The notes under the pieces: generated by a model
The model's input: the letters and a program-made list of their open reading frames with translations, nothing else
Database searches by the model: none
What the model was told of the DNA's origin: nothing
From: Candidatus Limnocylindria bacterium
GTDB lineage: Bacteria; Chloroflexota; Limnocylindria; P2-11E
Length of the DNA stretch: 64,000 nt
Direction: 5' to 3'
Assembly (NCBI GenBank): GCA_038211425.1
Contig: JBBQVQ010000002.1
Location: 29,717 to 93,716, forward strand
Made by a program: the position numbers and the translations under genes
In this document: positions 2,149 to 64,000 of the stretch, one piece after another
How the letters are laid out: the number at the start of each line of letters is the position of its first letter
Position numbering within the stretch: position 1 is the first letter of the stretch

Positions 2149-3657
2149 GCGAACGTGCGGTCCTCGTACGGGACATGGCCGATCGCATCGCGTTTCGTCC
2201 TGCCGGAGATGAAATGGTCTGCCATCGAAAGGCCCATCTCCGATGCGATGTCCATGTCGACGTACTTGTAGAGGCCCTGGCGCCCGCCGGTCACGAGATT
2301 CTCGAACCGCATGAGCTCCTTCATGAGGGTGTCGACCGCGGCCTCGTAACCGACCATGTACACGGGATAACCGAACGTCGACCGCAACACGACCGACTCC
2401 TCGAGCTCGTCCTCCCTGATGAAGCCCTCCTCCGCGAGCTCCCGGGCGCACCGGCGTCCCAGGTCCTCCGCCGAGGCGTTCCAGATCGCGTCGCCGACGT
2501 CGCAGGTGATGTCGCAGAGCAGAACTGTCTCGTCGGGACCGCAGATCTCCGAGCCGCCGTAGTTGCGCGTCTCCGAGAGGCGGTTGAAGGTCTTGTTCGT
2601 GAAATAGATCGACTGCGCAGGCAGTGCCTGTGGCCGCTTGCACCGGAGCCCGACGACGGTGAGCGCGCGAAAGCGCAGGTAGCGCGCGGCCGCCTTGGCC
2701 TCGAGGGAGACGGCGTCGCCCAGGAGCTCCACGAGCGCCGGCAGCGGAACCGTGTTGACGACGCGGTCGCACGCGACCCGATGTTCGGGCCTGGCGGCCG
2801 ATCCCCATGGGTCGACGCCCCGCTCCGTGCCGGAGGAGAGCATGCAGAGCTGGCCGTCAAGGTTCGTCGGCGGTACCTCCCGATAGCGCGCCCCCACGAC
2901 GCGATCTCCCTCCACCTCGAGCCTGGTCACCAGCGCGTTCGTCAGCACGCGATTGTTCGCCCCCGCCTTGCAGATGCGCGCCCGCCATGCGCTGTGAGAT
3001 CAGGCCGGCGCCCTTGGGCGGGTAGTAGAGCTCGATCACCAGGGGCGCGTAGCGATGCTCGGTGCCCGTGCGCTTCGCGTAGCCCTTCCGAAGCGAGGAA
3101 ACGATCACCTTCATCAGGGAGATGTGAGGGATGCGGTGTTGCGCGAACGAGGCCGCGAGCTGGGACGGCGGCATGCCCCACACCTTGGTCGTGTATGGGC
3201 CGAAGAAGAGCCCGTAGAGGGTGCGGCCCATGGCCTGCGTGACCCAGTCCTCTGCCGAGACGAGCCTTCGCGGCGCGAGCTTGCGGCGAATGCTCTCGAC
3301 CACGTAGTCAAAGAACGCCCGGGCGGCGAGCACCGGCGACATGCTCTTCGCGATGTCGAGCGCCTCGAGCGGGTACTTGTAGAACTTCCCGCGGAACTTG
3401 ATGCGCACGTTCTTCGCACGGGCTGGGAAGCCGTCGTACGCGATCTCCTTGAACATGTCGAGGACGCGTTGATTGCGCGCGTGGTACGCGTGCGGACCGA
3501 AGTCGAAGCCCGCGCCCGTCGCCCCGTACAGGGTCGTGGCGAGGCCGCCGAGGAAACCCTGGGCTTCGAGGACCGTTACCTGCTCGGCGTGTTCGGCGAG
3601 CTGGAAGCCGGCGGCGAGGCCGCAGATGCCTCCCCCGAGCACGACCGTGTGACTCAC
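2145..3657 (-). pseudogene. FAD-dependent oxidoreductase (HemY/Glf-like), split by a one-base insertion near 2981-2983; a true pseudogene or a sequencing error
   Basis: ORFs 2857..3657 and 2145..2948 together align end to end with the intact paralog at 33787..35295; GxGxxG-type VVLGGGICGL, DFGPH; identical C-terminus VPYEDRTFA. Confidence 0.88.
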
Positions 3658-49839: not shown

Positions 49840-50709
49840 CTAGTACGTCTTGACCACGAGCGCGCTCTCGAGGTGGCGCAGGTCGACGGCGGGCGCGACC
49901 ACGGCCCGCTGATAGGCGGCATTTTCGGACTTCTCGACCGCCGTGACGGCCCCGATGACCAGGCCCTTGGGGTAATACGAGCGCAGTTCGGCGCCGAGGG
50001 CCAGCCCGGCGGTGATGACGACGTCGCCCACCTTCACCGGGTCGCTCTGCAGCACCCAGTCCATCAGGAGCGTGTCGCCGTACTGCCCCCGGACGATCCC
50101 ACTCGCGCGCGAGCCCTGGGCCAGCGCCGAAACGGTCGACCCCGAATCGGTCAACAGGAGCACCTTGCTGAAGTTGGTGCCCACCTCGCTGATCCGGCCG
50201 ACCACGCCTGTGTCCCCGACGACGATGTGGCCGGTCTTCACGCCGTGGTCTCTGCCGACGGACAGCACGATGGCATTCCGTACGCCGGATGGATCGCGCG
50301 CGATGACCTGGGCGGGCACCGACTCGAAGGGCAGCCCGCGCGCGGCGGCATCGAGCTTCGCCGCCTGCCCAGCGGCCACCGCCTGCTCCCGCAGCAGCAC
50401 GTTGTGGAGCGCAAGCCGATCGTTGTCGGTGCGCAGCCGGGCGTTGTCGGCGCGAAGGCGGTCGATCTCGGTGATCACGCCCAGCGCGCGCCCCGCAGCC
50501 GCTCCGCCGTCGGCGACGACCCGGCTGATCGGCGCGAGCACCTGCGTGGCGGCGGCGGCGACCGCCCGCACGGGGACCGCGTCGCGCGCGATCACCAGCA
50601 GGATCGAGATGGTGAAGAGGACGAGGAAGGGCCGGAGAGAGCCACGCTGCGTCCCCGCGAGGGTGCCGCCGCGCGGGAGGCTCATCCTCGTGCGCCCCAG
50701 GGATGCCAT
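49840..50709 (-). CDS. mreC: Rod shape-determining protein MreC
   Basis: TM helix, coiled coil, AQVIARDP, GVVGRI, GDVVITAGL, YPKGLVIG; downstream of mreB. Confidence 0.95.
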   Translation of the reverse strand: MASLGRTRMSLPRGGTLAGTQRGSLRPFLVLFTISILLVIARDAVPVRAVAAAATQVLAPISRVVADGGAAAGRALGVITEIDRLRADNARLRTDNDRLALHNVLLREQAVAAGQAAKLDAAARGLPFESVPAQVIARDPSGVRNAIVLSVGRDHGVKTGHIVVGDTGVVGRISEVGTNFSKVLLLTDSGSTVSALAQGSRASGIVRGQYGDTLLMDWVLQSDPVKVGDVVITAGLALGAELRSYYPKGLVIGAVTAVEKSENAAYQRAVVAPAVDLRHLESALVVKTY

Positions 50710-50711
50710 GG

Positions 50712-51761
50712 CTATCGCGGCGACGACGCGTATGTGTCGGTGACGAGGCTCCGCGCGTAGTCGGGAAGAGCATCGAGAATGATCCCGGCCCCGCGCACCA
50801 CGCAGGTGAGCGGATCCTCCGCGATGCGGACGGTCATCGCCGTCGCCTCGACGATGCGGGTGTCGAGGCCCCGAAGCAGCGCGCCACCGCCCGCGAGGTA
50901 GATGCCCTGATCCATGACGTCGGCAATGAGCTCCGGCGGGGTCTCCTCGATCGTGTTCTTCACCGCGTCGACGATCTGCTGCACGGACGGCTCGAGCGCT
51001 TCGCGGACCTGGGCGCTCGTGACCTCGACCGAGCGCGGGAGTCCCGTCAGCAGATCGCGCCCGCGGAAGAACGTCGAGACCTCTTCGTCGAGCGGGTACG
51101 CGGAGCCGACCCCGATCTTGACGTCCTCCGCGGTGCGCTCGCCCATGAGCAGATTGAACTCGCGGCGGGCGTAGGCGACGATGTCCTGGTCCATCTCGTC
51201 GCCTCCGATGCGCAGGGACCGCGAGAGAACGATGCCGCCGAGCGACGTCACGGCGACCTCGGTCGTGCCGCCCCCGATGTCCACGATCATGGAGCCGGAG
51301 GGCTCGTTCACCGGGAGACCGGCGCCGATCGCCGCGGCCATCGGCTCTTCGACGAGGCGCGCCCAGCGCGCGCCCGCGTTGAGCGCCGCCTCCTGCACGG
51401 CCCGCTTTTCGACCTCGGTGACGCCGGACGGGATGCCGATGATCACCCGCGGCCTCGGGAGGAGACCGACGCGGTCGTGCACCTGCCGGATGAAGTGCTT
51501 GAGCATGTATTCGGTGATGTCGAAGTCGCTGATGACCCCGTCCTTCAGCGGCCGTATGGCGGAGATGCCCGCGGGCGTCCGGCCGACCATCCGCTTCGCT
51601 TCGGCTCCCACCGCGAGCACCGCACCGGTGCGGGTGTCCTTGGCGACGACGGACGGCTCCGTGATGACGATGCCGCGCCCTCGCACGTGCACGAGCGTGT
51701 TCGCCGTTCCGAGGTCTATGCCGATGTCTCGGGAGACCATGCCGAACAGACCCTCGAGCAA
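50712..51761 (-). CDS. mreB: Rod shape-determining protein MreB
   Basis: IGIDLGTANTLV, RPLKDGVI, EEPMAAAIGAG, DIGGGTTE, LAGGGALL. Confidence 0.98.
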   Translation of the reverse strand: MLEGLFGMVSRDIGIDLGTANTLVHVRGRGIVITEPSVVAKDTRTGAVLAVGAEAKRMVGRTPAGISAIRPLKDGVISDFDITEYMLKHFIRQVHDRVGLLPRPRVIIGIPSGVTEVEKRAVQEAALNAGARWARLVEEPMAAAIGAGLPVNEPSGSMIVDIGGGTTEVAVTSLGGIVLSRSLRIGGDEMDQDIVAYARREFNLLMGERTAEDVKIGVGSAYPLDEEVSTFFRGRDLLTGLPRSVEVTSAQVREALEPSVQQIVDAVKNTIEETPPELIADVMDQGIYLAGGGALLRGLDTRIVEATAMTVRIAEDPLTCVVRGAGIILDALPDYARSLVTDTYASSPR

Positions 51762-51920
51762 AGTCCGCCGTCCCTTCCCGCCTCGCGAGCGATCAGCGCG
51801 CCGCGTAACAGTAACGTGAAGAGGATAGCGGCAGCACGACCGCGTGTACGTGTCCGGGAGGTAACGAGATGCTGCCGACCGGTCGTCTTGTCGCGTGGCA
51901 GGGGGGCGCGAGGGGCCCGG

Positions 51921-52418
51921 TTAGGTCGTCCGGACCTTACCGCCGGCGTGCACGGTCCAGTCGCGCTCGTCGAAGTCCTTCGCGCAGTAGGGGCAGATGT
52001 TCCACTCGGGCCGGATCAGCTTTGCGCACGACGGGCAGACGCGCTTCAGCCGCGTGCGGCACGTGGGGCAGAGAAGGAACTCCTCGGCGACCCGTTCATG
52101 GCATGTCGGACAGACGACGCGCTGTTCCGCCTCTGCGAGGAGGCTCTCTTCGGCGAGCTGGCGCTCGTAGCCCTCGCCGAGCGTCTCGCGCGGCCGCACG
52201 ATGAGATAGAGGAAGAGGCCGAGGACGTTGAGCACGACCACGAGAAGCCCGGACATGTAGGGCAGGATCGCGTTCTCCGTCCGCTGCTGGGCGTCGCGGA
52301 CGGTCCAGAAGACCATCGCCAAGTAGAGAGCGACGACGTACAGCAGGCTGAAACGCACGGCGAATTGCACGAGCGCGTTGTTGAGGAACCCCGTCCAAAT
52401 GGCGCCGATATCCGGCAT
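51921..52418 (-). CDS. Membrane protein with double zinc ribbon
   Basis: Two TM helices, YLIVRP, then CPTC..CPTC..CPSC..CPYC. Confidence 0.85.
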   Translation of the reverse strand: MPDIGAIWTGFLNNALVQFAVRFSLLYVVALYLAMVFWTVRDAQQRTENAILPYMSGLLVVVLNVLGLFLYLIVRPRETLGEGYERQLAEESLLAEAEQRVVCPTCHERVAEEFLLCPTCRTRLKRVCPSCAKLIRPEWNICPYCAKDFDERDWTVHAGGKVRTT

Positions 52419-53480
52419 CTAGACCTCCGCCCGCAGTCGCCCGCTGTCCGAGCGTACCCGCGCACGCCAGTAATCGAGCAGGTCCCCTAGCGTCTGATCG
52501 AACGGGATCAGTGGCTCCCAACCGGTCATGCGCCGGAAGCGGGAGGAATCCGACCAGAGGATCGGAACGTCGCTCGGCCGCAGGCGCGCGGGGTCTTCCT
52601 CTGTACGGATCTTCGCGTCGGTGTGCGTCAGGAGGATGTCGAGCATCTCCCGGATCGACCAGGTGCGGCCGCTGCCGATGTTGTAGGTCTCGCCGGGCTC
52701 CGCGGTGTCGAGCGACATCCAGTAGGCGCGGACCATGTCGCGGACGTCGGTCCAGTCGCGCTTCGGGGTCAGGTCGCCCACGTACAGGACCGGCTCGTGG
52801 AGCCCCGCCTCGATCTCGGCGATCTGTTTGGCGAAGGTGCTCGTGACGAAGATCAGTCCGCGCCGCGGTCCGGTGTGGTTGAAGCCTCGCGTGACGACCA
52901 GGTGCAGCCCATAGGACTTGAAGTACTGGTAGGCGAGCTTGTCCTGGGCGACCTTGCTCACCGCGTACGGGGAGAGCGGACGCAGCGCGTTCGTCTCCTT
53001 CATGGGCACCTCGTCCGGGTGCACGAGGCCGTACTCCTCGCTCGACCCGGCGATGTGCATCCGGATCTGCGTGTCGTGGCGGCGGATGGCCTCCAGGATG
53101 TTCAGCTGCGAGGTGATGTTGATGTGGAGCGTGGACGCCGGCTCGTCGAACGACGACTGCACGAAAGACTGCGCGGCGAGGTGGTAGATGCGCTGCGGCT
53201 GGACCGCCGAGATCAGCTTCTCCACCGCGCCGGCATCCGTGAGCTCGCAGTGCAGGAGCGTGACGCGGCCGATCTTCGTCTCGTCGCGCAGCCCTGCGCC
53301 GTCGGAGAAACGGCCCTCGACGATGTCGAGCTTACCGGCGCGCTTGATGTCCTCGAGGTTCTCCATGCGCGAGCGCCAGCGATACGTGCCGTAGACCGCG
53401 ACGTCCGAGTGGTGGGCGAGGATGTACTCGGCGAGGTGGCTGCCCGCGAAGCCGGTGATCCCGGTGATCAGGACGCGCAT
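52419..53480 (-). CDS. GDP-mannose 4,6-dehydratase / Rmd-like NAD(P)-dependent SDR
   Basis: LITGITGFAGSHL, HLAAQSFV..SF, GSSEEYG, SPYAVSK, FNHTGPRR, RDWTDVRD. Confidence 0.9.
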   Translation of the reverse strand: MRVLITGITGFAGSHLAEYILAHHSDVAVYGTYRWRSRMENLEDIKRAGKLDIVEGRFSDGAGLRDETKIGRVTLLHCELTDAGAVEKLISAVQPQRIYHLAAQSFVQSSFDEPASTLHINITSQLNILEAIRRHDTQIRMHIAGSSEEYGLVHPDEVPMKETNALRPLSPYAVSKVAQDKLAYQYFKSYGLHLVVTRGFNHTGPRRGLIFVTSTFAKQIAEIEAGLHEPVLYVGDLTPKRDWTDVRDMVRAYWMSLDTAEPGETYNIGSGRTWSIREMLDILLTHTDAKIRTEEDPARLRPSDVPILWSDSSRFRRMTGWEPLIPFDQTLGDLLDYWRARVRSDSGRLRAEV

Positions 53481-53554
53481 CGACCGGAAGCCTAGCAAAG
53501 GCGACGCGGCGCTCGGATGCCTACCCGATGCGCACCAGGGATAGGATCGCCGGA

Positions 53555-54091
53555 ATGTCCCGCACCCTCGACGTTCGACGCCACGCCAGGCGTTCCGATC
53601 GCGCCGACGAGGACAGCGGCCTCGCCGCCGACGGCCGCGCCATGGCGGAGACGCTGTCGCGGGCCGCCCCGCGGTACGCCCTGGTGGTCGCCACGCCGGT
53701 CCGGCGGGCGCAGGAGACGGCGCGGCTGATCGCAGGCAGGCTCGACCTCGTCCTGCCCGAGCTGCTGGCCGATCTCGATCCGGTCCTCAGCTATGCCGGC
53801 TACATGCGGCTGAAGCAGCTCCCCGACTGGATCGCTTTCGTGCGGGAAGACGATCGCGGGCGCGGGCTCGGGGACGAGCAGCTGCGCGTGTGGGCCGGCC
53901 TGGTGACGAGGGTGCCCAACGATCAAAGCGTGCTCGCGGCCTCGCATGGCGGAGCGATCGAGATCCCGGCGGCGCGCCTGGCCACGCGCCTCGGAGCGGT
54001 GTTTGGCGGACCGTCGTTCGGCTACTGCGAGGGAGTCCGAGTGACGTTCGAGCGGGGGGAACCGGTCGCGCTCGAGGTGTTGCGCGTGTAG
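53555..54091 (+). CDS. Histidine phosphatase superfamily protein
   Basis: RRHA, RAQETA, ASHGG motifs; TAGGAT 7 nt before the ATG. Confidence 0.75.
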   Translation: MSRTLDVRRHARRSDRADEDSGLAADGRAMAETLSRAAPRYALVVATPVRRAQETARLIAGRLDLVLPELLADLDPVLSYAGYMRLKQLPDWIAFVREDDRGRGLGDEQLRVWAGLVTRVPNDQSVLAASHGGAIEIPAARLATRLGAVFGGPSFGYCEGVRVTFERGEPVALEVLRV

Positions 54092-54199
54092 GTCGCGCCG
54101 CCAGTACCGCGGATGGGCCTCTGCGGCGAGCCGGCCCGAGGACCAGGGAGATCGATCGGCGGGCTCTCGCGGTCGGCGCCGCTTCTCCGGGCCGCGCCC

Positions 54200-55645
54200 T
54201 CAGACGGAGCTCGTCCCGGCGACCTCCACGAGCCGCGCGCCGAGCTCGCGCACCACCTCGACGATGAGGTCGACATCGTGCTCGGTGGTCCGCCAGTTCA
54301 CGATCGCCGGGCGGAATGCGACGCGGCCGCCGTAGCGCGTGGTGCCCACGAAGACCCGTCCGTCCGCGAGGACCGCGCGGCCGAGGCGCTCGTTCAGGGC
54401 GTCGAGCCCGTCGGGGTGGGCTGACGCGGGGCGATAGCGGAAGCAGACGATGTTCAGCGGCGCGTCGGCGAGGCGCTCGAGTTCGGGAGCGGCATCGATG
54501 CGGCGCGCGAGCCGCTGCGCCAGCGCGAGGTGGCGCTCGACCATCGCGCGGTGGCCGTCGCGGCCATAGGCGGCGAGCGTCGTCCACACCGCTATGCCCC
54601 GCGCTCGCCGCGACATCTCGGGTCCCCGGTGGGCGAAGTCAGGCCGCGCTTCATCGGGGTCGCCGAGGTACGGCGCCGTCGCCCCGAAGCTGCCTTCGAG
54701 ACGCCACGCGTCGCGGACGAAGGCGAATCCGCTGTCATACGGGACGTTCAGCCACTTGTGTCCGTCGGCGATCACCGAATGCGCGCGTTCGACGCCCTCG
54801 GCGAGAGCGCTCGCGCGCGGGGTGAGCCGCGCGAACAGGCCGAACGCGCCATCGACGTGGAGCCAGGCGCCGTGGCGCTCCGCGAGGTCGGCCAGTCGCG
54901 CGATCGGGTCGAAGTCGCCGGCGTTCACCTCGCCCGCGTTGCCGATGATGATCGCCGGCGCACCCCCCAGCGCGCGCAGTGCGTCCTCGAGGGCGTCCGC
55001 GTCGAGGCGTCCGACCGCGTCGGGTGTGAACCGCCGGATGTTCGCCCGGCCGAGGCCCAGCATCGCGACCGCTTTCACCGCGCTCACGTGGATGTACCCG
55101 CCCGTGAGGATCGGCACCGGCGGGAGACCGGCCAGGCCCGCTTCCTCCACGTTCACGCCGTGGCGCTCGCCCCACCAGCGGCGCGCCGCGGCGAGGCCGA
55201 CGAAGTTCGCCATCGTCGCTCCGGTCGTCAGCACGCCGCCCCAGTCCTTCGGCAGGCCAAAGAGGTCCTTCAGCCACTCGATCGAAACGGCTTCGAGGCG
55301 CGACGCGAGCGGCGAACCGGCCCAGAGGCCGGCGTTCTGGTCCCACACCGACGCGAGCACGTCGGCCGCGAGCGCCGCAGGTGTGCCGCCGCCCTGCACG
55401 AAACCGAAGAAGCGCGGACCCGACGCGCGCACGATCCCGTCGCTGCCCGCGACGAGTTGCTCGAGCGCGGCGAGCGTCCCGAACCCGTGGTCGGGGAGCG
55501 GTACGGAGAAGCGCTCCGCGACGGCGTCGGCGTCGCGCGCGCGGACCGTCGCCCCGTCGATGTCGGCGAGGTATCCCTCGGCCGCGCGCAGCGCGGACCG
55601 CAGCGCATCGGTGACGAGCGCGCGTTCGTCGATGGGGTCGGCCAC
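54200..55645 (-). CDS. Group II PLP-dependent amino-acid decarboxylase
   Basis: TTGATMAN, GDFDPI, WLHVDGAFG, DGHKWLNVPY, EMSRRARG; start GTG 55645 (TAGGAT 7 nt upstream). Confidence 0.93.
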   Translation of the reverse strand: MADPIDERALVTDALRSALRAAEGYLADIDGATVRARDADAVAERFSVPLPDHGFGTLAALEQLVAGSDGIVRASGPRFFGFVQGGGTPAALAADVLASVWDQNAGLWAGSPLASRLEAVSIEWLKDLFGLPKDWGGVLTTGATMANFVGLAAARRWWGERHGVNVEEAGLAGLPPVPILTGGYIHVSAVKAVAMLGLGRANIRRFTPDAVGRLDADALEDALRALGGAPAIIIGNAGEVNAGDFDPIARLADLAERHGAWLHVDGAFGLFARLTPRASALAEGVERAHSVIADGHKWLNVPYDSGFAFVRDAWRLEGSFGATAPYLGDPDEARPDFAHRGPEMSRRARGIAVWTTLAAYGRDGHRAMVERHLALAQRLARRIDAAPELERLADAPLNIVCFRYRPASAHPDGLDALNERLGRAVLADGRVFVGTTRYGGRVAFRPAIVNWRTTEHDVDLIVEVVRELGARLVEVAGTSSV

Positions 55646-55688
55646 CCCGGCAATCCTACGCACGCGGCGGGCGCGATCGAGCGCCCAC

Positions 55689-55718
55689 CGCAAGGGCATC
55701 GTGCGCAAGGGCATCGTG
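55689..55718. repeat. Perfect 15-bp tandem direct repeat (cgcaagggcatcgtg x2)
   Basis: Seen directly; lies just upstream of the predicted decarboxylase promoter. Confidence 0.85.
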
Positions 55719-55747
55719 GGAAGGACGCCGGGTGATTCGCTCGCTGG

Positions 55748-56353
55748 TCAGACCGTCCGCGCCTCCGCGGCGACGGTGAAGCGCCGGACCGCCTCGACGA
55801 CGGCGTCGTGCTCGACCTCGAGCACGCGCGCCGCGAGCGTCTCGGGGTCGTCTCCCGCGAGCACGGGCACGCGCCGCTGCACGATGACCTCGCCGAGGTC
55901 GACGGTGTTGGGGTGCACGCGGTGCACCGTCGCGCCGGATTCGCTGGCGCCGGACGCGAGCACCGCCGCATGCACGCGCATCCCGTACATCCCCGGTCCG
56001 CCGAAGAGCGGCAGCAGCGCGGCGTGGGTGTTGATGACGGGCACGTTGCGCAGGCGGATGAAGAAGTCATTGCCGAGGATGAAGTTGTAGCCGCCGAGGA
56101 CCACGAGCTCGGCGCCGGCGTCGACGAGCGCAGCGGCGATCGCGCGCTGCGCCGCGGCGCGGCTGCCGTAGGCGGCGATCTCGTACGCCGCGTGCGACAC
56201 GCCGGCCTTCGCCGCCCGGTCGAGCGCGGGCACGCCCGCGTGGCTCGACGCGACGTGGACGACGCCCGCGTCGAGCCGCTCGTCGGCGCAGGCATCGAGG
56301 ATGGCCTGGAGGTTCGTCCCGCGCCCGGACACGAGCACGCCGACGCGCAGCAT
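55748..56353 (-). CDS. purN: Phosphoribosylglycinamide formyltransferase
   Basis: VLVSGRGTNLQA, INTHAALLPLFGG.GMYG, SGATVH, DLGEVI, EVEH. Confidence 0.95.
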   Translation of the reverse strand: MLRVGVLVSGRGTNLQAILDACADERLDAGVVHVASSHAGVPALDRAAKAGVSHAAYEIAAYGSRAAAQRAIAAALVDAGAELVVLGGYNFILGNDFFIRLRNVPVINTHAALLPLFGGPGMYGMRVHAAVLASGASESGATVHRVHPNTVDLGEVIVQRRVPVLAGDDPETLAARVLEVEHDAVVEAVRRFTVAAEARTV

Positions 56354-56480
56354 CAGGCGGGCCGGAAGCGGCGCGCCGCGGGCACCGCCTCGACGGCGAC
56401 GCCCGCCGGAGCCGGCCGATGGACCGGACCCGTCGCGGTGCGCCCAGCGGCCCCGACCCCGCCGGCGCTGGTGGGCGGCG

Positions 56481-57515
56481 TCAGATGAACCGGACCCGGC
56501 GGCCGTCGCGCACCGGCTCGACCGCCCCGAGGATGACGGCCTCGGGCACCGCCGCGAGCGCGGCCGCGGCGGCTTCGGGTGGCACGACCGCCACCAGGCC
56601 GATCCCCATATTCCAGGTGTCGAAGGCATCCGCATCCCCGACGTCGCCGTGCCGCGCGAGCCAGGAGAAGATCGGCGGTACGCGCCAGGCGTCGCGGGCG
56701 ATCGCCGCGCCCTGGCCCGGGGCGAGCGCGCGCGGCAGGTTCCCCTCCCACCCGCCGCCGGTGATGTGCGCGACGGCCCGCACCGGGGCCGCGGCGCGGA
56801 GCGCGCGAAGCGCCGCAAGGTAGGACCGATGTCCGGAGAGGAGCGCCTCGTCAAGCGAGGACCCGAGCTCGGCCCGCGGCCGCGCGAGCGTCTCCCGAAT
56901 GTCGGTACCCTCGGCCGAACCGACCTGGCCCACCACCGCACGCGCCAGCGCGTAGCCGTTGGTGTGGAGGCCGGAGGACAGCAAGCCGATGCAGACGTCA
57001 CCGGTCGCCACGTTCGCGGGGTCGAGGATCCGGTCGCGCTCGACCGCCCCGACGAGGAACCCCGCGAGGTCGTAACTCCCGTCGGCGTACATGCCCGGCA
57101 TCTCCGCTGTCTCGCCGCCGAGCAGCGCGCAACCATGGTCCCGGCACGCGTCGGCCATGGAGCCCACCACGCGTGAGAACACCCCCGGGTCGAGGCGCCC
57201 GGTCGAGAAGTAGTCGAGGAAGAACAGCGGCTCCGCCCCCATCGCCGCGGCGTCGTTCACGCAGTGGTTCACCAGGTCGCGTCCGGGGACCTCGTGCCGG
57301 TCCATCATTCGCGCGAGCTCGAGCTTCGTGCCGACGCCGTCGGTCGTCGCGACGAGCACCGGATCGCGGTACCCGCGGAAGCGGAAGAGTCCCCCGAAGG
57401 CGCCGATGTCGCCGAGCACCTCCGGGCGCTTCGTCGCAGTGATGCGCTCGCGAACGCGCGCGAGCGCGTCGTCGGCGCGAGCCACGTCGACTCCGGCGTC
57501 GCGGTACGTGGTCAC
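56481..57515 (-). CDS. purM: Phosphoribosylformylglycinamidine cyclo-ligase (AIR synthetase)
   Basis: YRDAGVD, TDGVGTK, LLGGETAEMPG, SSGLHTNGY, AHITGGG, NMGIG. Confidence 0.97.
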   Translation of the reverse strand: MTTYRDAGVDVARADDALARVRERITATKRPEVLGDIGAFGGLFRFRGYRDPVLVATTDGVGTKLELARMMDRHEVPGRDLVNHCVNDAAAMGAEPLFFLDYFSTGRLDPGVFSRVVGSMADACRDHGCALLGGETAEMPGMYADGSYDLAGFLVGAVERDRILDPANVATGDVCIGLLSSGLHTNGYALARAVVGQVGSAEGTDIRETLARPRAELGSSLDEALLSGHRSYLAALRALRAAAPVRAVAHITGGGWEGNLPRALAPGQGAAIARDAWRVPPIFSWLARHGDVGDADAFDTWNMGIGLVAVVPPEAAAAALAAVPEAVILGAVEPVRDGRRVRFI

Positions 57516-57579
57516 GACGGCACCCGAACCGCGCAGCAGTCGGACTGAGCGGGGCTGACCGGGACACATCCATGGTTCG

Positions 57580-58971
57580 TCACGACGGCTCGAGCACCTC
57601 CTTCGCGAGCTCGAGCTGCACCGGGACCGGGTAGTCGCCGGTGAAGCACGCGCCGCAGAACTCGTCGCGGCTGCCCCCGGTCGCGCCGATCAGTCCCGCG
57701 AGCGAAAGGTAGCCGAGCGTGTCGGCTCCGACGTGGTCGCGGACCGCAGGGACGTCGAGCCGCGAGGCGATGAGATCGTCCCTGCGCGCCATGTCCACCC
57801 CGAAATAGCAGGAGTGCCGGATCGGCGGCGAGCACACGCGCATGTGCACCTCTTCTGCCCCTGCCCGCCGGAGAAGCTGCACGATCGGGCCGCTCGTCGA
57901 GCCGCGGACGATGGAATCGTCGACCACGACGACGCGCTTGCCGTCGAGCACGTCGCGCAGCGCGTTGTATTTGAGCGCCACGTTGTGCGCGCGGAGCTCC
58001 GGCGACGGCTGGATGAACGTGCGGCCGATGTAGCGGTTCTTGATGAGCCCCTCGCGGAAAGGGATGCCCGAGGCGCGCGCATAACCGACGGCCGCGGGGA
58101 TCGCGCTATCGGGCACGGGTATCACGACGTCCGCGCTGGCGGGATGCTCGAGCGCGAGCGCCTCGCCCATGCGCTCTCTCGTCGCGTACAGCGAGACCCC
58201 GGCGAGCGTGCTCGACGCCGACGCCAGGTACACGTGCTCGAAGAGGCACAGGCCCCGCTTTTCGGCGGCGAGGTCGAGGATGCTCTCAGCTCCGCGGTCG
58301 TCGATGCGCACGACCTCCCCCGGCGCGACGTCGCGAATGAAGGTCGCGCCCACGGTGTCAAGAGCGCACGTCTCGCTCGCGACGAGCCACGAGTCTCCCT
58401 TACGGCCGAGGCAGAGCGGCCGGACGCCGAGCGGGTCGCGCAGCGCGTAGAGCGCGCGCGGCGTGAGCAGCACCAGCGACCACGCTCCCGCGAGCCTCGG
58501 AAGCGTGCGTGCAAGGCGCTCGTCCCACGTCGCGCCCGCGGCGTTGGCGATGGCCTGCGCGATGACCTCCGTGTCCGATGAGGTGGCGAACTCCACGCCC
58601 TCGGCGCGCAGTGAATCGCGGAGCTCTCTCGCGTTGATGCAATTGCCGTTGTGCGCGATCGCAAGATCGCCGAGGCCTTCGCCTCTGACCACCATGGGCT
58701 GCGCGTTCTCGACCCGCGACGAGCCGGTCGTCGAGTAGCGCGTGTGTCCGATGGCGGCCTGCCCGCCGAGAGCGCCGAGGTCGGGTTCGGCGAAGACCTG
58801 ACCGACCAGTCCCATGCGACGCACCACGCGGATGTCGCGCCCGTCGGTGGCGGCGATGCCGGCCGATTCCTGGCCGCGGTGCTGGAGCGCGTAGAGCGAA
58901 AAGAACTGCATGCGCGCGGCGTCGGTCGGATCCGTCCCCGCCGGCGACCAGATGCCGCACACCCCGCACAC
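57580..58971 (-). CDS. purF: Amidophosphoribosyltransferase
   Basis: N-terminal MCG, LQHRGQESAG, GHTRYSTTG, VVDDSIVRGST, CGACFTGDYP. Confidence 0.98.
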   Translation of the reverse strand: MCGVCGIWSPAGTDPTDAARMQFFSLYALQHRGQESAGIAATDGRDIRVVRRMGLVGQVFAEPDLGALGGQAAIGHTRYSTTGSSRVENAQPMVVRGEGLGDLAIAHNGNCINARELRDSLRAEGVEFATSSDTEVIAQAIANAAGATWDERLARTLPRLAGAWSLVLLTPRALYALRDPLGVRPLCLGRKGDSWLVASETCALDTVGATFIRDVAPGEVVRIDDRGAESILDLAAEKRGLCLFEHVYLASASSTLAGVSLYATRERMGEALALEHPASADVVIPVPDSAIPAAVGYARASGIPFREGLIKNRYIGRTFIQPSPELRAHNVALKYNALRDVLDGKRVVVVDDSIVRGSTSGPIVQLLRRAGAEEVHMRVCSPPIRHSCYFGVDMARRDDLIASRLDVPAVRDHVGADTLGYLSLAGLIGATGGSRDEFCGACFTGDYPVPVQLELAKEVLEPS

Positions 58972-59131
58972 GGCTAGCGGGCCCGCAGGTTCACGCGCGG
59001 CTCATCGGACGCGCGCGCGAGACGTCCCTGCGGTGAAGACCGTCGCCACAAGGCGGTCGGCACCGCCTCCGCCCCATGCTGGCGGCCGCCATCCGGCCGA
59101 CGGGCACGGGCACGCGAGGCCACGGCTGGCA

Positions 59132-61345
59132 TCACGGGATGCGCCCCAGTGCGCGCTCCAGGCCGCCGGAGTGGGCCCTCTCGATCGCCCCCAGCGAGAG
59201 GGCCACGGGACCGAGCGTGAAGACATCGCCGCCGAAGGCGCCGAGCGTCCGGAGCGGGACGCCGTCCTCCGCGGCGAGCCGGCGCAGGGCGTCCTCATGA
59301 GCGGGCTCGGCCGCGAGCACGATGCCCGAAGGAGCCTCCGCGAAGAGCGCCGTCGGCGTGCTCGCCCCTCGGACCGCCGGGAGCGTCGCGACCGCACCGA
59401 TCCCGGCGCGGATGCACATCTCCGCCAGCGCGCCAACGAGGCCGCCTTCGGCGCGGTCGTGCGCGGCGCGGACGAGGCCCGCGGCGTGCGCCGCGAGCAC
59501 GAACCGGTGGAGGCGCACCTCGAGGGCGAGATCCATCTCGTCGAGCCAGGCGTCGACCGGGAGGCTTCCGGCCAGGAGCGCGCGGTCGCCGGAGCGCACC
59601 GCGGATGCCCCCAGGTGGCGAGCGACGTCGGCAAGGTGTCCAACCGCGCCGATGACCGCGGTCGGCCAGATGTCTCTGCCGCTGGTGGCGTTGTAGAGGC
59701 TGACGTTGCCAGAGACCACCGGGACGCCGAGCGCGCGGCACGCGGCGGCGATGCCGGCCACGGTCTCGCGCAGCTCCCACGCCCCGCGGGCTCCCTCGGG
59801 ATTGCCGAGGTTCAGGCAGTCCGTGATCGCGAGCGGCTCGGCGCCGACGCACACGAGGTTGCGGGTGGCCTCCGCGACGGCGGCCACGGCCGCCGCATAC
59901 GGATCCTGCGACGCGAGCCGCGGCTGCGCGTCGACCGTGACGGCGATCCCATCGGTGCGCCCCTTGATACGGAGCACCGCGGCGTCCGCGCCCGGTCCCA
60001 GAACGGTGTCGGTGCCGACCATCTGGTCGTAGGTGCGGTACAGCGCCCGCCGCGAGGCGACGTCCGGGGACGCAAGGAGGCGCAGCACCTCCTGGTCCAT
60101 GTCGGCATCGGCTTGCAGCTTCGCGTGGTACACCTCGCCGGCCACGCGCTGCGCGGACTCCGCGCGGTACGAATCCGCGAGCGCGTCGATGTCGTGCTCG
60201 GGCGCGTCGTCCGCGAGCGCCGCGGGCGGAAGAGAGGCGACGACCGTGTCGCGGTCGCGGATCTCGAGCGTCTCCTCCAGTGTGATCTCGCCGATCCGGG
60301 CGGCGTGGAGCTCCCAGCGAGCGAAGACGCGCTCGGTCTCGGCCTCGCGCCCCGGGCGCGCGACGACGAGCATCCGCTCCTGGGATTCGGACAGCATGAC
60401 CTCGAAGGGCTCCATGCCGCTCGCGCGGCGCGGCACCGCGGCGACGTCGACGCGGATGCCCGCGCGGCTCTTCGCCGCGACCTCGCTCGCGGCGCAGCAG
60501 AGCCCCGCCGCGCCGAGGTCCTGTATCGCCTCGACCGCACCCGCGCCGATGAGCTCGAGGCACGCCTCGAGCAGGAGCTTCTCGAGGAACGGGTTGCCGA
60601 CCTGGACCGACGGCCGCTTGGCGTCGCCTCCGGGGCCCAGCTCGAACGAGGCCAGGAGCGACGCACCCGCGATGCCGTCGCGCCCGGTGTCGCTGCCGAC
60701 CAGGTACACCGCGCTGCCCGGACGCGCGGTGGACGCGCTCGCGAGCTGGTCGGTGGGCACGAGGCCGACGCACATCGCGTTCACCAGCGGGTTCTCGCCG
60801 TAGCCGGGCCCGAACGACACGTGCCCACCGACGTCCGGGATGCCGACGCAGTTGCCGTAGAACGAGATGCCTCCGACCACGCCGCGGACCGCTCGACGGG
60901 TGGATTCCTGCGCCGGATCCCCGAACGCGAGCGCGTTGAGCAGCGCCACCGGCCGCGCCCCCATGGCGAAGATGTCACGCAGTATCCCTCCGACCCCGGT
61001 CGCCGCGCCCTGGAAGGGCTCGACCGCAGAGGGATGGTTATGGCTTTCGATCTTGAAGACGCACAGCAGACCGCCGCCGATGTCGACGGCGCCGGCGTTC
61101 TCGCCCGGACCGATCGCGACGCGCTGGCCGGTGGTGGGCAGCGTCCGCAGGAGCCGCTTGCTGTGCTTGTACGCGCAGTGCTCGCTCCACATCGCGCCGA
61201 ACATCGCCCACTCGAGGTCGTTCGGCTCGCGCCCGAGCAGATCGCGCACGCGTCCGGCCTCGGGGTCCGTGAGGCCCACTTCGCCTGGGAGGTCCCGGCT
61301 AGGCTGCGCCGCCTTCGTCCCCGTCACGACCGGGGACGGTCTCAT
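59132..61345 (-). CDS. purL: FGAM synthase subunit PurL (small type)
   Basis: MWSEHCAYK, KIESHNHPS, GAATGVGG, SESQERM, VVSGNVSLYN; ATG 61345 overlaps upstream TGA. Confidence 0.97.
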   Translation of the reverse strand: MRPSPVVTGTKAAQPSRDLPGEVGLTDPEAGRVRDLLGREPNDLEWAMFGAMWSEHCAYKHSKRLLRTLPTTGQRVAIGPGENAGAVDIGGGLLCVFKIESHNHPSAVEPFQGAATGVGGILRDIFAMGARPVALLNALAFGDPAQESTRRAVRGVVGGISFYGNCVGIPDVGGHVSFGPGYGENPLVNAMCVGLVPTDQLASASTARPGSAVYLVGSDTGRDGIAGASLLASFELGPGGDAKRPSVQVGNPFLEKLLLEACLELIGAGAVEAIQDLGAAGLCCAASEVAAKSRAGIRVDVAAVPRRASGMEPFEVMLSESQERMLVVARPGREAETERVFARWELHAARIGEITLEETLEIRDRDTVVASLPPAALADDAPEHDIDALADSYRAESAQRVAGEVYHAKLQADADMDQEVLRLLASPDVASRRALYRTYDQMVGTDTVLGPGADAAVLRIKGRTDGIAVTVDAQPRLASQDPYAAAVAAVAEATRNLVCVGAEPLAITDCLNLGNPEGARGAWELRETVAGIAAACRALGVPVVSGNVSLYNATSGRDIWPTAVIGAVGHLADVARHLGASAVRSGDRALLAGSLPVDAWLDEMDLALEVRLHRFVLAAHAAGLVRAAHDRAEGGLVGALAEMCIRAGIGAVATLPAVRGASTPTALFAEAPSGIVLAAEPAHEDALRRLAAEDGVPLRTLGAFGGDVFTLGPVALSLGAIERAHSGGLERALGRIP

Positions 61346-62193
61346 GAGTCGGCCGACGCTCCCAGGAACTTCTCGACCTGGTCGGCGAAGTTCGCGATGT
61401 CCACGACCCGCGACTGGATGTGTCCGTACACCTCGTCGATGTCGGTCTGCTCGCGGTCGTACGCCAGGAGGTTGCGCATGTTCGCGAAGTGCTCGAGGCG
61501 GTATCCCAGGCCCTTCTCGATGATCCCGCGCTGGGCGATCGAGTCCAGGATGTCGTGGTACGCCTCGGGCTTGGGCAGCGCGAGCGCCATCACGAGGTAG
61601 GCACCGGTCCCGAAGAGAAGCTCCACGGCCTGTTGGAGATACCACTGCGCGAGGCCGTACAGCTTCGGGTCCGAACGGAACTTGCCCCGGTCGATCGCGC
61701 GAAGGTCCGTGAGCAGCACGACATATTCGCGCAGCCGCGCGAGCCGGCGCCGGACGTAGTCGCCGTCGATCGCGAAACGCTCGGTCCGCATGCGCTCCGC
61801 GAGCGCGCGCGACTGCGCCTCGTCGTATTTCTGGAACTCGAGGTACTCGAGCACCGCGCGCGCCTCGAACTCCACGCGACGCTTGCGGTCCCGCTGGTAC
61901 AGGAGAGACCAGCTCTTGATGACCTGGGCGCGCTGGAGGAGGGACGACTGGTTCAGGATGACCACGTCGAGCCCCTCGGTGTCGAGCGCCTTGGAAAGCT
62001 CGCTGACGAAATAGACCTGGTAGTCGAAGAATTCGTTGACCTTGATCTTGTCGAGCAGAAGGAGCGCGACGTCAAGGTCGGCGTAGGCGCCGGCGATCCG
62101 GCGGCCGGACGCCGTGCCCTGGGCGTAGGCGGCATCCACCGGGTTGGCGTGGAAGAGGTTCTGAAGCTGCGCCTGGCGCTCGAAGAGGTCCAT
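61342..62193 (-). CDS. Fused MntA-like nucleotidyltransferase + DUF86/HepT-like HEPN domain, with degenerate HEPN active site
   Basis: N-half: GT-x11-DLD, LDVVILN, LLYQRD..RVEFE..YLEF; C-half: LQQAVE, P..YHDI, RNLLAY in place of RNxxxH. Confidence 0.85.
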   Translation of the reverse strand: MDLFERQAQLQNLFHANPVDAAYAQGTASGRRIAGAYADLDVALLLLDKIKVNEFFDYQVYFVSELSKALDTEGLDVVILNQSSLLQRAQVIKSWSLLYQRDRKRRVEFEARAVLEYLEFQKYDEAQSRALAERMRTERFAIDGDYVRRRLARLREYVVLLTDLRAIDRGKFRSDPKLYGLAQWYLQQAVELLFGTGAYLVMALALPKPEAYHDILDSIAQRGIIEKGLGYRLEHFANMRNLLAYDREQTDIDEVYGHIQSRVVDIANFADQVEKFLGASADS

Positions 62194-62199
62194 ACCCTT

Positions 62200-62910
62200 T
62201 TATATACCCACACGGAGCGAAACAGTGTCCGCCTGCACGCTCGCCAGGCAGGTCAGGACGCGAGCGCCGTCCGAGCCGCCGAGAAGCGGCTCCGAGCAGC
62301 GCTCCGGGTGCGGCATGAGCCCGACGACGTTCCCGGCCGCGTTCCGCACCCCGGCCACGTTGCCGAGCGAGCCGTTCGGGTTCGCCTCTGCGGTCGCGGC
62401 GCCGCGGTCATCGACGTAGCGAAAGACGATCTGGCCGTCGCGCTCCAGCGCGGACAGCGTCGCGTCGTCCGCGACCCAGCAGCCCTCGCCGTGGGCGATC
62501 GGCATGCGCAGGACGACGCCGGCGAGCCCCCGCGTGAATGCCGTCGCCTCGCTCTCGACGCGCAGGCCGACCCAGTCGCAGCGGAATTCGAGACCGGCGT
62601 TGCGGACGAGCGCTCCCGGCAGCAGACCGGCCTCGCACAGGATCTGGAAACCGTTGCAGGAGCCGAGGACGAGCCCGCCCGCGTCGGCGAAGCGCCGCAG
62701 CTCCCGCGTCGCGGGCGAGAGCCTGGCTATCGCCCCAGCGCGGAGGTAGTCGCCGTACGAGAACCCGCCGGGCACGATCGCCGCGTCGAAGCCGGCGAGG
62801 TCCGCGTCGGCGTGCCAGACGATCTCGCACGGGACTCCCAAGAGACCGAGGGAATGCGCGAAGTCGCGCTCGCTCCACGTGCCGGGATAGCGGAGGATGG
62901 CGGTCCTCAT
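62200..62910 (-). CDS. purQ: FGAM synthase glutaminase subunit PurQ
   Basis: PGGFSYGDYLRAG, GSCNGFQIL, PIAHGEG, NPNGS, GLMPHPER. Confidence 0.98.
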   Translation of the reverse strand: MRTAILRYPGTWSERDFAHSLGLLGVPCEIVWHADADLAGFDAAIVPGGFSYGDYLRAGAIARLSPATRELRRFADAGGLVLGSCNGFQILCEAGLLPGALVRNAGLEFRCDWVGLRVESEATAFTRGLAGVVLRMPIAHGEGCWVADDATLSALERDGQIVFRYVDDRGAATAEANPNGSLGNVAGVRNAAGNVVGLMPHPERCSEPLLGGSDGARVLTCLASVQADTVSLRVGI

Positions 62911-63170
62911 GCCCGCACGCCGTCATCCGCGAGCTGGAACTCGAACCGCTCGATGACGGGGTTCGCCAGGAGCTGATCCCCCATCCGCTGCGCGGTCCCG
63001 CGGGCAGCCGCCTCGTCGGGGGCTCTGAACCGCACGACGATCTCCTTGCCCGTGCGGACGGCGTCGACGGCGACGCCCAGCGCACGGAGCGCGCCCGCGA
63101 CGGCCTCTCCCTGCGGATCCCGGACCTCGTCCTTCGGGCGGACGTGGATCGTCGCGACGAATGCCTTCAT
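62907..63170 (-). CDS. purS: FGAM synthase subunit PurS
   Basis: DPQGEAV, VRTGK, LLANPVIE; ATG 63170 (GTG 63197, overlapping purC stop, is an alternative). Confidence 0.95.
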   Translation of the reverse strand: MKAFVATIHVRPKDEVRDPQGEAVAGALRALGVAVDAVRTGKEIVVRFRAPDEAAARGTAQRMGDQLLANPVIERFEFQLADDGVRA

Positions 63171-63193
63171 GCCGGTTGGCGGGCTGGTGCTCG

Positions 63194-64000
63194 TCACAGG
63201 TCGGTGCCGGTGATCAGGCGGTGACACTCGCGATAGCGCTCGCTCGTGCCGGCGACCACCTCCGCGGGAAGCGCTGGCCCGGGCGGCTCCCGGTCCCAGC
63301 CGCTCTGGACGAGGAAGTCGCGCACGAACTGCTTGTCGTATGAGGGCGGCGCGGCGCCAGGGCGGTACGCGCGCGAGTCCCAGTACCGGGACGAGTCGGG
63401 CGTGAGCGCTTCGTCGATCAATAGCAGCTCGTCGCCCGCGAACCCGAACTCGAACTTGGTGTCCGCGAGGATGAGCCCTCGTCCCAGCGCGAACGCGTGG
63501 GCGTGCCGGTAGAGCGCGAGCGTGACCTGCTCCAGCCGTTCGGCGAGCGGCCGCCCGACGAGCGCGGCGAGCTGCGCGCGCGAGATGTTCAGGTCGTGCC
63601 CGGTGACCGCCTTCGTCGCAGGCGTGAAGACCGGCTCGCGCAGCTGCGCCGATTCCTCGAGTCCACGCGGGAGAGGCTCTCCGGCGAGGGTGCCCTGCTG
63701 CCGGTATTCGGCCCACCCGGAGCCCGCGAGATAGCCGCGCGCGACGCACTCGATGTCCACGCGCTCGCACCGCCGCACGAGCACGGCTCTTCCCGCCAGC
63801 TCCGGCCGCGAGCCGAACGGCTCCGGGAAGCGCGCGAGGTCGGTCTCCACGAGGTGGTTCGGGACCACCGCCGCGGTCCTCGCGAACCAGAAGTTCGAGA
63901 GCTGCGTGAGGACGCGTCCCTTGTCAGGGATCGGCGTCGGGAGCACGACGTCGAACGCCGAGAGCCGGTCGCTCGCGACGATCACGAGCGCCTCGTCGCC
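63194..64000 (-). CDS. purC: SAICAR synthetase (5' end outside the window)
   Basis: SDRLSAFD, ECVARGYLAGS, FTPATKA, ADTKFEFG, DEALTPDSSRYW, DKQFVR. Confidence 0.97.
   Translation of the reverse strand, partial: GDEALVIVASDRLSAFDVVLPTPIPDKGRVLTQLSNFWFARTAAVVPNHLVETDLARFPEPFGSRPELAGRAVLVRRCERVDIECVARGYLAGSGWAEYRQQGTLAGEPLPRGLEESAQLREPVFTPATKAVTGHDLNISRAQLAALVGRPLAERLEQVTLALYRHAHAFALGRGLILADTKFEFGFAGDELLLIDEALTPDSSRYWDSRAYRPGAAPPSYDKQFVRDFLVQSGWDREPPGPALPAEVVAGTSERYRECHRLITGTDL

Follow-up and report, generated by a model that had tools for sequence, protein, structure and literature searches.

Type VII toxin–antitoxin (TA) systems pair a HepT toxin, whose HEPN domain carries the RNase motif Rx4-6H, with an MntA nucleotidyltransferase (NTase) of the MNT kind, which carries G-S-x(9-13)-D-x-D and a third Asp and (oligo)AMPylates a Tyr beside the RNase motif; a mobile or patchy genomic setting is a further defining feature. 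FhepTA of Shewanella oneidensis (SO_1440, from prophage CP4So) is a fused HepT-MntA protein which, in the part of the report available to us (Yao et al., NAR 2026; PMC13000451), has an intact Rx4H motif, oligoAMPylates its own adjacent Tyr and is governed by a redox switch of two regulatory cysteines; it is carried on prophages and islands, and its HEPN half is toxic when isolated. According to the accessible sections of an earlier survey (Anantharaman et al. 2013; PMC3710099), the HEPN domain of an MNT fusion is as a rule inactive, lacks the RNase residues and has a substrate-binding or regulatory task, and domesticated MNT-HEPN modules have given rise to GlnE-type and KNTase-type enzymes. 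The same sections describe MtlR, an inactive HEPN protein that is a regulator and is encoded in the mannitol operon, and the accessible text of Brown et al. (2011; PMC3261824) describes a fusion of PurF with a HEPN-type domain in Methanospirillum hungatei.

We focus here on a stretch of 64,000 nucleotides from a Candidatus Limnocylindria bacterium of the Chloroflexota (contig JBBQVQ010000002.1, positions 29,717 to 93,716), referred to in its whole length as the window, and on a gene in it, here called X, that lies between purQ and purL and encodes a fused MNT-HEPN protein of 283 amino acids. In terms of RNase motif, acceptor, curated score and mobility, X does not conform to what defines type VII TA systems. 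We propose that it is an exapted single-chain MntA-HepT protein of the FhepTA type that would no longer be a TA module and that, with slightly better than even confidence, acts by binding, probably of a nucleotide, with nucleotidyl transfer being dispensable.

Residue losses in a fused MNT-HEPN protein

The original prediction for this locus, of one open reading frame (ORF) for 283 amino acids with an MntA-like and a HepT-like half, set 6 nucleotides behind purQ and overlapping the purL ATG with its TGA, is borne out by ORF analysis, Pfam and NCBIfam. Pfam HepT-like matches residues 155-272 of X (E 2.1e-14; 53.7 bits, cut-off 23.5) and Pfam Polbeta matches residues 10-103 just below its cut-off (E 1.6e-5; 25.4 bits, cut-off 26.9), while the NCBIfam models HepT_toxin and MntA_antitoxin reach 56.9 bits and 46.0 bits (the latter at residues 31-123), short of the equivalog cut-off of 60. 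No other family in the two collections matches at E <= 1, including KNTase_C, DUF4037, GlnD/GlnE, NTase_sub_bind and the aminoglycoside families. The predicted fold agrees with this division: in an AF2 model built from an 80-sequence alignment (mean pLDDT 84.8, pTM 0.57), which supersedes an earlier run on 18 close sequences with a poor N-terminal half (pLDDT 60.5), the HEPN half finds YutE (1ylm) and HepT (7ae6/6m6u) by Foldseek with TMt of 0.84-0.93, and the MNT half finds MntA with TMt of 0.72-0.75 (0.74-0.75 for the chains 7aer_A/5yep_A). A search of the ESM Atlas returned solely clusters of X itself and of related MNT/HEPN proteins. Domesticated MNT-HEPN fusions are marked by an NTase domain and, after it, a helical domain of HEPN origin that is devoid of RNase residues, an arrangement that X shares.

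Where HepT has RNxxxHxY, the HEPN half of X reads RNLLAYDR, which phmmer against the PDB aligns with RNIAVHDY of Shewanella HepT, so that the catalytic His has become Tyr and the Tyr has become Arg, both as originally predicted; neither the Rx4-6H motif nor the Tyr beside it is present in X. Counts over 137 Limnocylindria, 150 Ktedonobacteria-type and 36 canonical fused sequences place these changes in a wider frame. The catalytic His, present in 34 of the 36 canonical proteins, is Tyr in 130 and Phe in 7 of the Limnocylindria sequences; in the Ktedonobacteria-type sequences the site holds His in 121, Arg in 16, Tyr in 7 and other residues in 6. The acceptor Tyr is found in all 36 canonical proteins, and its place is taken by Arg (136) or Lys (1) in Limnocylindria and by Pro in 146 of the 150 Ktedonobacteria-type sequences. 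The helix-2 His (32/36 canonical) is Tyr in all 137 Limnocylindria sequences and Ile, Thr, Met or Val in the Ktedonobacteria type. R240, on the other hand, is invariant in both Chloroflexota clades (137/137 and 150/150). The original prediction had counted the retention of RxxxxH by homologues against itself; such retention is true of the Ktedonobacteria sister clade and false of X's own clade.

To judge from these residues, X cannot be a HepT-type RNase, nor can it be under Tyr-AMPylation control, and the TA-derived fusion with a disabled RNase site that had been predicted is thus upheld. X also has no cysteine at all, and therefore the redox switch of FhepTA cannot apply. Y245 was considered as a new AMP acceptor and rejected, given that the site holds Phe in 7 of 137 Limnocylindria sequences and His, Arg, Tyr, Ser, Cys, Asn or Trp in the sister clade; it also stands two residues ahead of the canonical acceptor and would thus face another side of the helix.

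The transferase motif of the MNT half has fared differently. The protein of the window has GT-x11-DLD and the third carboxylate, D76. Among the 137 Limnocylindria sequences, G26 is kept in 134, Ser or Thr at 27 in 130, Asp or Glu at 39 in 136 (Glu in 18), at 41 in 131 (Ser in 5 and Gly in 1 of the remainder) and at 76 in all 137 (Glu in 11). Thirteen sequences, from at least three lineages, deviate from the motif: six sequences that form a D41S clade (one identical pair, with 84-89% identity in all other comparisons), D41G in the second family of the order, and two sequences with G26A/S27L. No deviation at G26, S27, D39 or D41 is seen among the 36 canonical fused proteins. Of 275 alignment columns, 115 are at least 98% conserved, and these include the HEPN stretches KLYGL.QWYLQQ.VE..FGTGAY, YHDILD and RNLLA.DR.QTDI; all five positions of the NTase motif fall below that line. 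Catalytic residues that are less conserved than the scaffold around them would be the usual mark of a pseudoenzyme. Since the motif is less conserved and has been lost in several lineages, an obligatory AMPylase is less likely than a binding protein, and the AMPylase activity put forward in the original prediction is weakened to that extent.

Taken together, the losses can be ordered from the sequence comparison. Both Chloroflexota clades lack the acceptor Tyr and the helix-2 His, which were therefore lost first, in the common ancestor. The two halves would thus have fused, the acceptor Tyr would then have been lost in both clades and the catalytic His in Limnocylindria only, with erosion of the transferase motif coming last.

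Inheritance and operon setting of gene X

Gene X is present as one copy per genome at a fixed locus throughout its family, which differs from the mobile or patchy setting of type VII systems, and no mobile-element genes were recognised among the ORFs that flank it in the window. With X as query, 20 of the 24 other genomes of its own family match, the four misses being 58-86% complete, as does one of the two genomes of the second family in the order; there was no match in 14 genomes of the other families of the class. A profile search found nothing in 43 genomes of three sister families (f3, 0/23; f4, 0/16; f5, 0/4) and full-length relatives, at 36-48% identity, in 24 of 28 genomes of a further family (f25) and in a few others, the named ones being Thermogemmatispora and Ktedonobacteraceae of the Ktedonobacteria. 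Extended to 1.84 billion representatives, the profile search gave 2,727 matches at E <= 0.001, including many fused MNT-HEPN proteins of 270-365 amino acids with intact GS..DxD and RNxLVHxY, as well as separate 140-residue halves of two-gene systems. In a quick maximum-likelihood tree of 80 fused proteins (45 Chloroflexota rows and 35 canonical ones; the careful search is incomplete), the Chloroflexota rows lie on one branch (SH-aLRT 99, length 0.85), within which 19 Limnocylindria rows form a clade (SH-aLRT 99), and all 35 canonical proteins carry GS..DxD. Short contigs with purQ-X-purL at 73-80% identity to X also occur in metagenome-assembled genomes labelled Acidiferrales, Bathyarchaeia, Gaiellaceae, Saccharimonadales and Udaeobacter (L063, L086, L106, L108, L123, L126), probably through mis-binning and not gene transfer.

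The fusion itself is authentic. Contigs from four public runs of four studies cover X, three records (X1 record 4, X2 record 13, X4 record 21) read through the domain junction without a gap, and X contains no listed indel, which excludes an artefact of assembly. A single ORF is found in 18 of 18 aligned full-length genome loci and in all of the best 120 of 579 database matches (282-301 amino acids, at least 73% identity to X), the 137 Limnocylindria homologues share the same fused architecture, and the frame is intact, without internal stops, in every full-length genome match. Contigs in three runs link purL (about 61195-61204) to purQ (about 62296-62301) and skip some 1,100 nucleotides with X; because their anchors are just 19-27 letters long, they were set aside as probably derived from other organisms in which purQ and purL are adjacent.

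Selection on X is as strong as on its neighbours. Across 741 pairs from 39 species loci, the medians of dN/dS (NG86) are 0.248 (X), 0.259 (purQ) and 0.260 (purL), the values for X in the 12 closest pairs range from 0.006 to 0.165, and the amino-acid identity of X between genera, 61-98%, equals or exceeds that of PurQ and PurL in nearly all the same loci. The relaxed selection for which a check had been proposed is thus not found, and the idea that X is an assembly artefact or a pseudogene decaying from two former genes, already at odds with the spanning contigs and the intact frame, is refuted and has a negligible probability. In close species pairs the synonymous distance of X lies below those of purQ and purL (for example, 0.30 against 0.62 and 0.70 for L079/L084), which suggests that the nucleotide sequence itself is under some constraint or that codon use follows another regime. 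The G+C content dips over X (0.63-0.68 as opposed to 0.70-0.77), which raised the question of recent horizontal acquisition. This is ruled out by third codon positions, where the G+C content of X (0.915) matches that of its neighbours (0.886-0.913); the dip stems from second codon positions (0.345) and does not reflect foreign DNA. X is therefore native, is by all appearances inherited vertically, and is under constraint equal to that on purQ and purL.

In the window, X belongs to a same-strand series purC-purS-purQ-X-purL-purF-purM-purN (Table 1), in which purQ and purL encode subunits of formylglycinamidine ribonucleotide (FGAM) synthase. The purQ stop codon (62200-62202) and the ATG of X (62193-62191) leave 6 nucleotides between them, and the TGA of X (61344-61342) shares ATGA with the ATG of purL (61345-61343), in the same manner as purS overlaps purQ. 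Because intergenic room is absent, X must, on this arrangement, be co-transcribed with its pur neighbours. Around the end of purQ and the start of X (62185..62215, minus strand), the AT-rich TATATAAAAGGGTATG has a counterpart in TATATAGATAGGTATG at the junctions of L002-L018, and the rare codons TAT, ATA and AGA are used there although G+C at third positions is about 0.9 in the genome; the junction may serve as an unstructured ribosome-loading site for X. At gathering thresholds, Rfam gave neither a riboswitch nor any other element in window positions 50000-64000 and the 8 kb upstream of the window. Long ORFs antisense to the pur genes in 57000..64000 (of 518 and 896 amino acids, for example; one such ORF is 61420..62976 on the plus strand) are not treated as genes, since they are a usual by-product of about 72% G+C.

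Table 1. Gene X, its parts and the neighbouring pur genes (window coordinates)
Feature	Position	Strand	Evidence or remark
Gene X, 283-aa fused MNT-HEPN protein	61342..62193	-	stop codon counted in; ORF, Pfam, NCBIfam, phmmer
MNT half (MntA-like nucleotidyltransferase), residues 1-100	61894..62193	-	Pfam Polbeta, NCBIfam MntA, Foldseek
NTase motif G26-T27-x11-D39-L-D41	62071..62118	-	
Third carboxylate D76 (in LDVV)	61966..61968	-	
Long linker helix, residues 101-143	61765..61893	-	AF2 model: helix 103-136
HEPN (HepT-like) half, residues 144-283, putative pseudo-RNase	61345..61764	-	Pfam HepT-like, Foldseek
Degenerate Rx4H site R240-N-L-L-A-Y245-D-R247 (canonical RNxxxHxY)	61453..61476	-	
ATGA overlap, X stop/purL start	61342..61345	-	translational coupling (predicted)
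purQ/X spacer, 6 nt	62194..62199	-	within AT-rich stretch TATATAAAAGGGTATG, partly rare purQ end codons
purC	63194..63985	-	upstream
purS	62907..63170	-	Pfam PurS
purQ, FGAM synthase glutaminase subunit	62200..62910	-	Pfam GATase_5
purL, small FGAM synthase subunit, 737 aa	59132..61345	-	Pfam AIRS, AIRS_C, FGAR-AT_linker
purF	57580..58971	-	followed downstream by purM and purN
purM	56481..57569	-	
purN	about 55748..56500	-	

This order is conserved within Limnocylindria, as are the fusion and the change of His to Tyr, in agreement with the original prediction. In 79 Limnocylindria-type species loci from the genome collection, X always adjoins purQ or purL (79/79). On the upstream side, 65 of the 66 loci with enough room have the end of purQ at most 400 nucleotides away; downstream, 64 of 73 have the start of purL no more than 150 nucleotides away, with an inferred overlap of 4 nucleotides in 48 of 73. 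In the other nine species, inserts of 0.3-5.4 kb that encode unrelated proteins separate X from purL, among them lipoprotein-like, flavoprotein-like and other ORFs and an opposite-strand regulator-like ORF (1,011 amino acids; roughly 1,010 in two species). X still adjoins purQ in the eight larger of these (L068, L080, L081, L082, L086, L089, L092, L127), and the ninth locus, L100, starts inside X and does not include its upstream side. The sole locus without purQ upstream (L017, genome G008) has there an ORF of 117 amino acids (2234..2587, plus strand), labelled a Phd/YefM-like antitoxin by reading of its sequence, and also an ORF for a RecB-like nuclease/helicase of 730 amino acids.

Outside Limnocylindria the settings differ. 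None of 27 Ktedonobacteria-type loci has a pur gene within 1.5 kb, and in eight of them, followed to about 6 kb, no pur gene was recognised in the ORF lists, which were not searched with pur proteins. In 21 of the 27, moaD-moaE lie directly upstream on the same strand, and farther out come a tetratricopeptide repeat (TPR) protein and a GntR regulator. The remaining six loci have different contexts. L050-L052 and L057 share a conserved block of GntR/UTRA regulator, TPR protein (about 479 amino acids), X orthologue, moaE and moaD, in which the TPR gene converges on the X orthologue. In sister family f3, purQ and purL are adjacent with nothing between them (L140, L141). In f4, an ORF of 304 amino acids that has two CxxC pairs resembling a Zn-ribbon and is hydrophobic in its C-terminal half, Zn-ribbon/membrane in type, occupies the position of X (L139 2239..3153, genome G028); it is seen in one of two f4 loci, the other ending before purL. 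Since the junction is empty in f3 and holds an unrelated ORF in f4, it appears to be a place where extra genes settle and then stay.

Binding, transfer and the purine pathway

Our preferred reading is that X works by binding and not by cutting RNA. The HEPN cleft (RNLLAYDREQTDID, in which R240 and N241 do not vary), remodelled and close to invariant, would, together with the MNT pocket, hold a ligand, most likely a nucleotide by analogy with other domesticated MNT-HEPN fusions. Nucleotidyl transfer would be no more than an auxiliary activity, given the erosion of its motif in several lineages of an otherwise fixed protein. X probably has no role peculiar to FGAM synthase; the pur operon would supply steady and stoichiometric expression, with X translationally coupled to purL in most species. 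Several observations weigh against this proposal. The three carboxylates are still Asp or Glu in 131-137 of the 137 Limnocylindria sequences and in all 150 of the Ktedonobacteria type, which is compatible with a functional metal/NTP site and perhaps with an active transferase in most species. Binding by X is itself deduced from patterns of conservation, and the model leaves the interdomain geometry uncertain (pTM 0.57). The adjacency of purQ (65/66) and the overlap with purL (48/73) would also fit a true tie to FGAM synthase, and operon inertia cannot be told apart from function on synteny data.

The same carboxylates, and the full motif of the protein in the window (G26, T27, D39, D41, D76), are what speaks for X as an active KNTase- or GlnE-like transferase, with an acceptor unrelated to purine synthesis and a dead HEPN half that binds the substrate. 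Such domestication has a precedent in the available part of PMC3710099, and Foldseek gives weak whole-chain matches to AAD(9) (6xz0, E 0.02, TM 0.25) and to the NTase-like 3c18, with TM of 0.23-0.25 for the two. We consider this reading unlikely, however, as 115 other columns surpass the motif positions in conservation, Glu replaces D39 in 18 and D76 in 11 of 137 sequences, and the D41S, D41G and G26A/S27L lineages persist, while canonical fused proteins show no deviation at all at G26, S27, D39 and D41; nor is there a match to the aminoglycoside or GlnE/GlnD families at E <= 1 in Pfam and NCBIfam. A further proposal, and the one towards which the original prediction leaned, makes X a regulator of the purine pathway, be it a nucleotide sensor, an AMPylase acting on the PurS-PurQ-PurL FGAM synthase as GlnE does on glutamine synthetase, or a fourth subunit. 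The constant company of purQ or purL, the ATGA-type overlap and a conservation at least as high as that of PurQ and PurL all agree with it, and the PurF-HEPN fusion of M. hungatei (accessible text of PMC3261824) is a separate case of association between HEPN and purine synthesis. Its ground is one of position only, however, and several findings speak against it: orthologues of the same subfamily in Ktedonobacteria stand behind moaD-moaE with no pur gene nearby, the purQ/purL junction takes an unrelated gene in f4, other genes part X from purL in nine of 73 species, the NTase motif is gone from at least three lineages in which the synteny persists, and the Rfam search of the operon region gave no riboswitch or other element. 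We thus regard a purine regulator as quite improbable. A co-fold of PurQ with X (score 0.00, mark 0.32) counts neither for nor against binding.

A selfish or defensive module of the FhepTA kind, whether TA or abortive infection, that sits in the pur operon by chance would be in keeping with the closest characterised relatives of X, which are type VII TA systems and FhepTA. Such a module is very hard to reconcile with the loss, in 137 of 137 sequences, of the acceptor Tyr together with both the catalytic and the helix-2 His, with native third-position composition, and with one copy at one locus in a whole family; PADLOC, moreover, has no match at E <= 0.01 for X or its Ktedonobacteria orthologue, and no mobile-element genes were recognised beside X in the window. 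More speculatively, and with little expectation that it will hold, X might be a fourth, regulatory component of FGAM synthase in Limnocylindria, whose TA-derived pseudoenzyme cleft would read adenine- or guanine-nucleotide levels and gate the assembly or activity of PurS2-PurL-PurQ, X being made in step with PurL via ATGA; the Ktedonobacteria sister would do likewise for the GTP-consuming molybdopterin pathway, and the two together would form a family of purine-nucleotide sensors recruited from TA.

Under the binding reading that we favour, X would be a clean natural example of a TA module turned into a housekeeping protein, with steps that can be put in order and with the whole protein as constrained as the adjacent essential enzymes throughout the loss of residues. 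Identification of a partner or ligand would reveal the use to which a 'dead' MNT-HEPN module can be put, and would assign a function to a protein that most genomes of this abundant, as yet uncultured lineage of soil bacteria carry. The current automatic name, 'type VII toxin-antitoxin system HepT family RNase toxin', is misleading for the clade of X.

Relation to described MNT-HEPN systems

Domesticated MNT-HEPN fusions are a known concept, and it is the subfamily of X and its fixation in biosynthetic operons that were not found in the literature searched: no report came to light of the Chloroflexota subfamily or of a HEPN/MNT gene between purQ and purL, with the proviso that the supplementary tables of PMC13000451 might name Chloroflexota members. 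The original prediction described MntA/HepT systems as normally two genes, a description that suits the classical pairs and is dated by the FhepTA fusions of 2026 and the domesticated fusions of 2013, so far as the accessible texts of PMC13000451 and PMC3710099 go. Two-gene systems of type VII, namely HepT/MntA of Shewanella (SO_3166/SO_3165; 5yep, 7aer, 6m6u) and HEPN/MNT of Aphanizomenon (7ae2-7ae9), match X in both folds and share the D39/D41 motif positions; X differs from them in being a single gene, in having lost the RNase and acceptor residues and in scoring below the NCBIfam equivalog cut-offs.

FhepTA is nearer in build. As described in the available part of its report, it is likewise one chain of about 280 amino acids with an N-terminal MNT half, a short linker and a C-terminal HEPN half, and X nests among FhepTA-like fused proteins in the tree. 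X departs from it by having Tyr for His, Arg for Tyr and no cysteine, and by its native codon usage and fixed position in a biosynthetic operon. MtlR, in the accessible account, resembles X as a catalytically inactive HEPN protein inside a metabolic operon; it lacks an MNT half, however, and X is acidic (pI 5.55, net charge -5). A role for X as an RNA-binding, MtlR-like regulator is weakened by that acidic pI, and RNA binding is not favoured for the same reason. KNTase/ANT(4'), AAD(9) and GlnE/GlnD, finally, combine, like X, an NTase with a HEPN-derived helical domain that lacks the RNase residues, and they illustrate a route from TA to a housekeeping or resistance role, as set out in the parts of PMC3710099 on which we draw. 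X, on the other hand, has no sequence match to their families at E <= 1, a weak fold match and a relaxed transferase motif, and thus resembles the domesticated MNT-HEPN fusions in architecture only.

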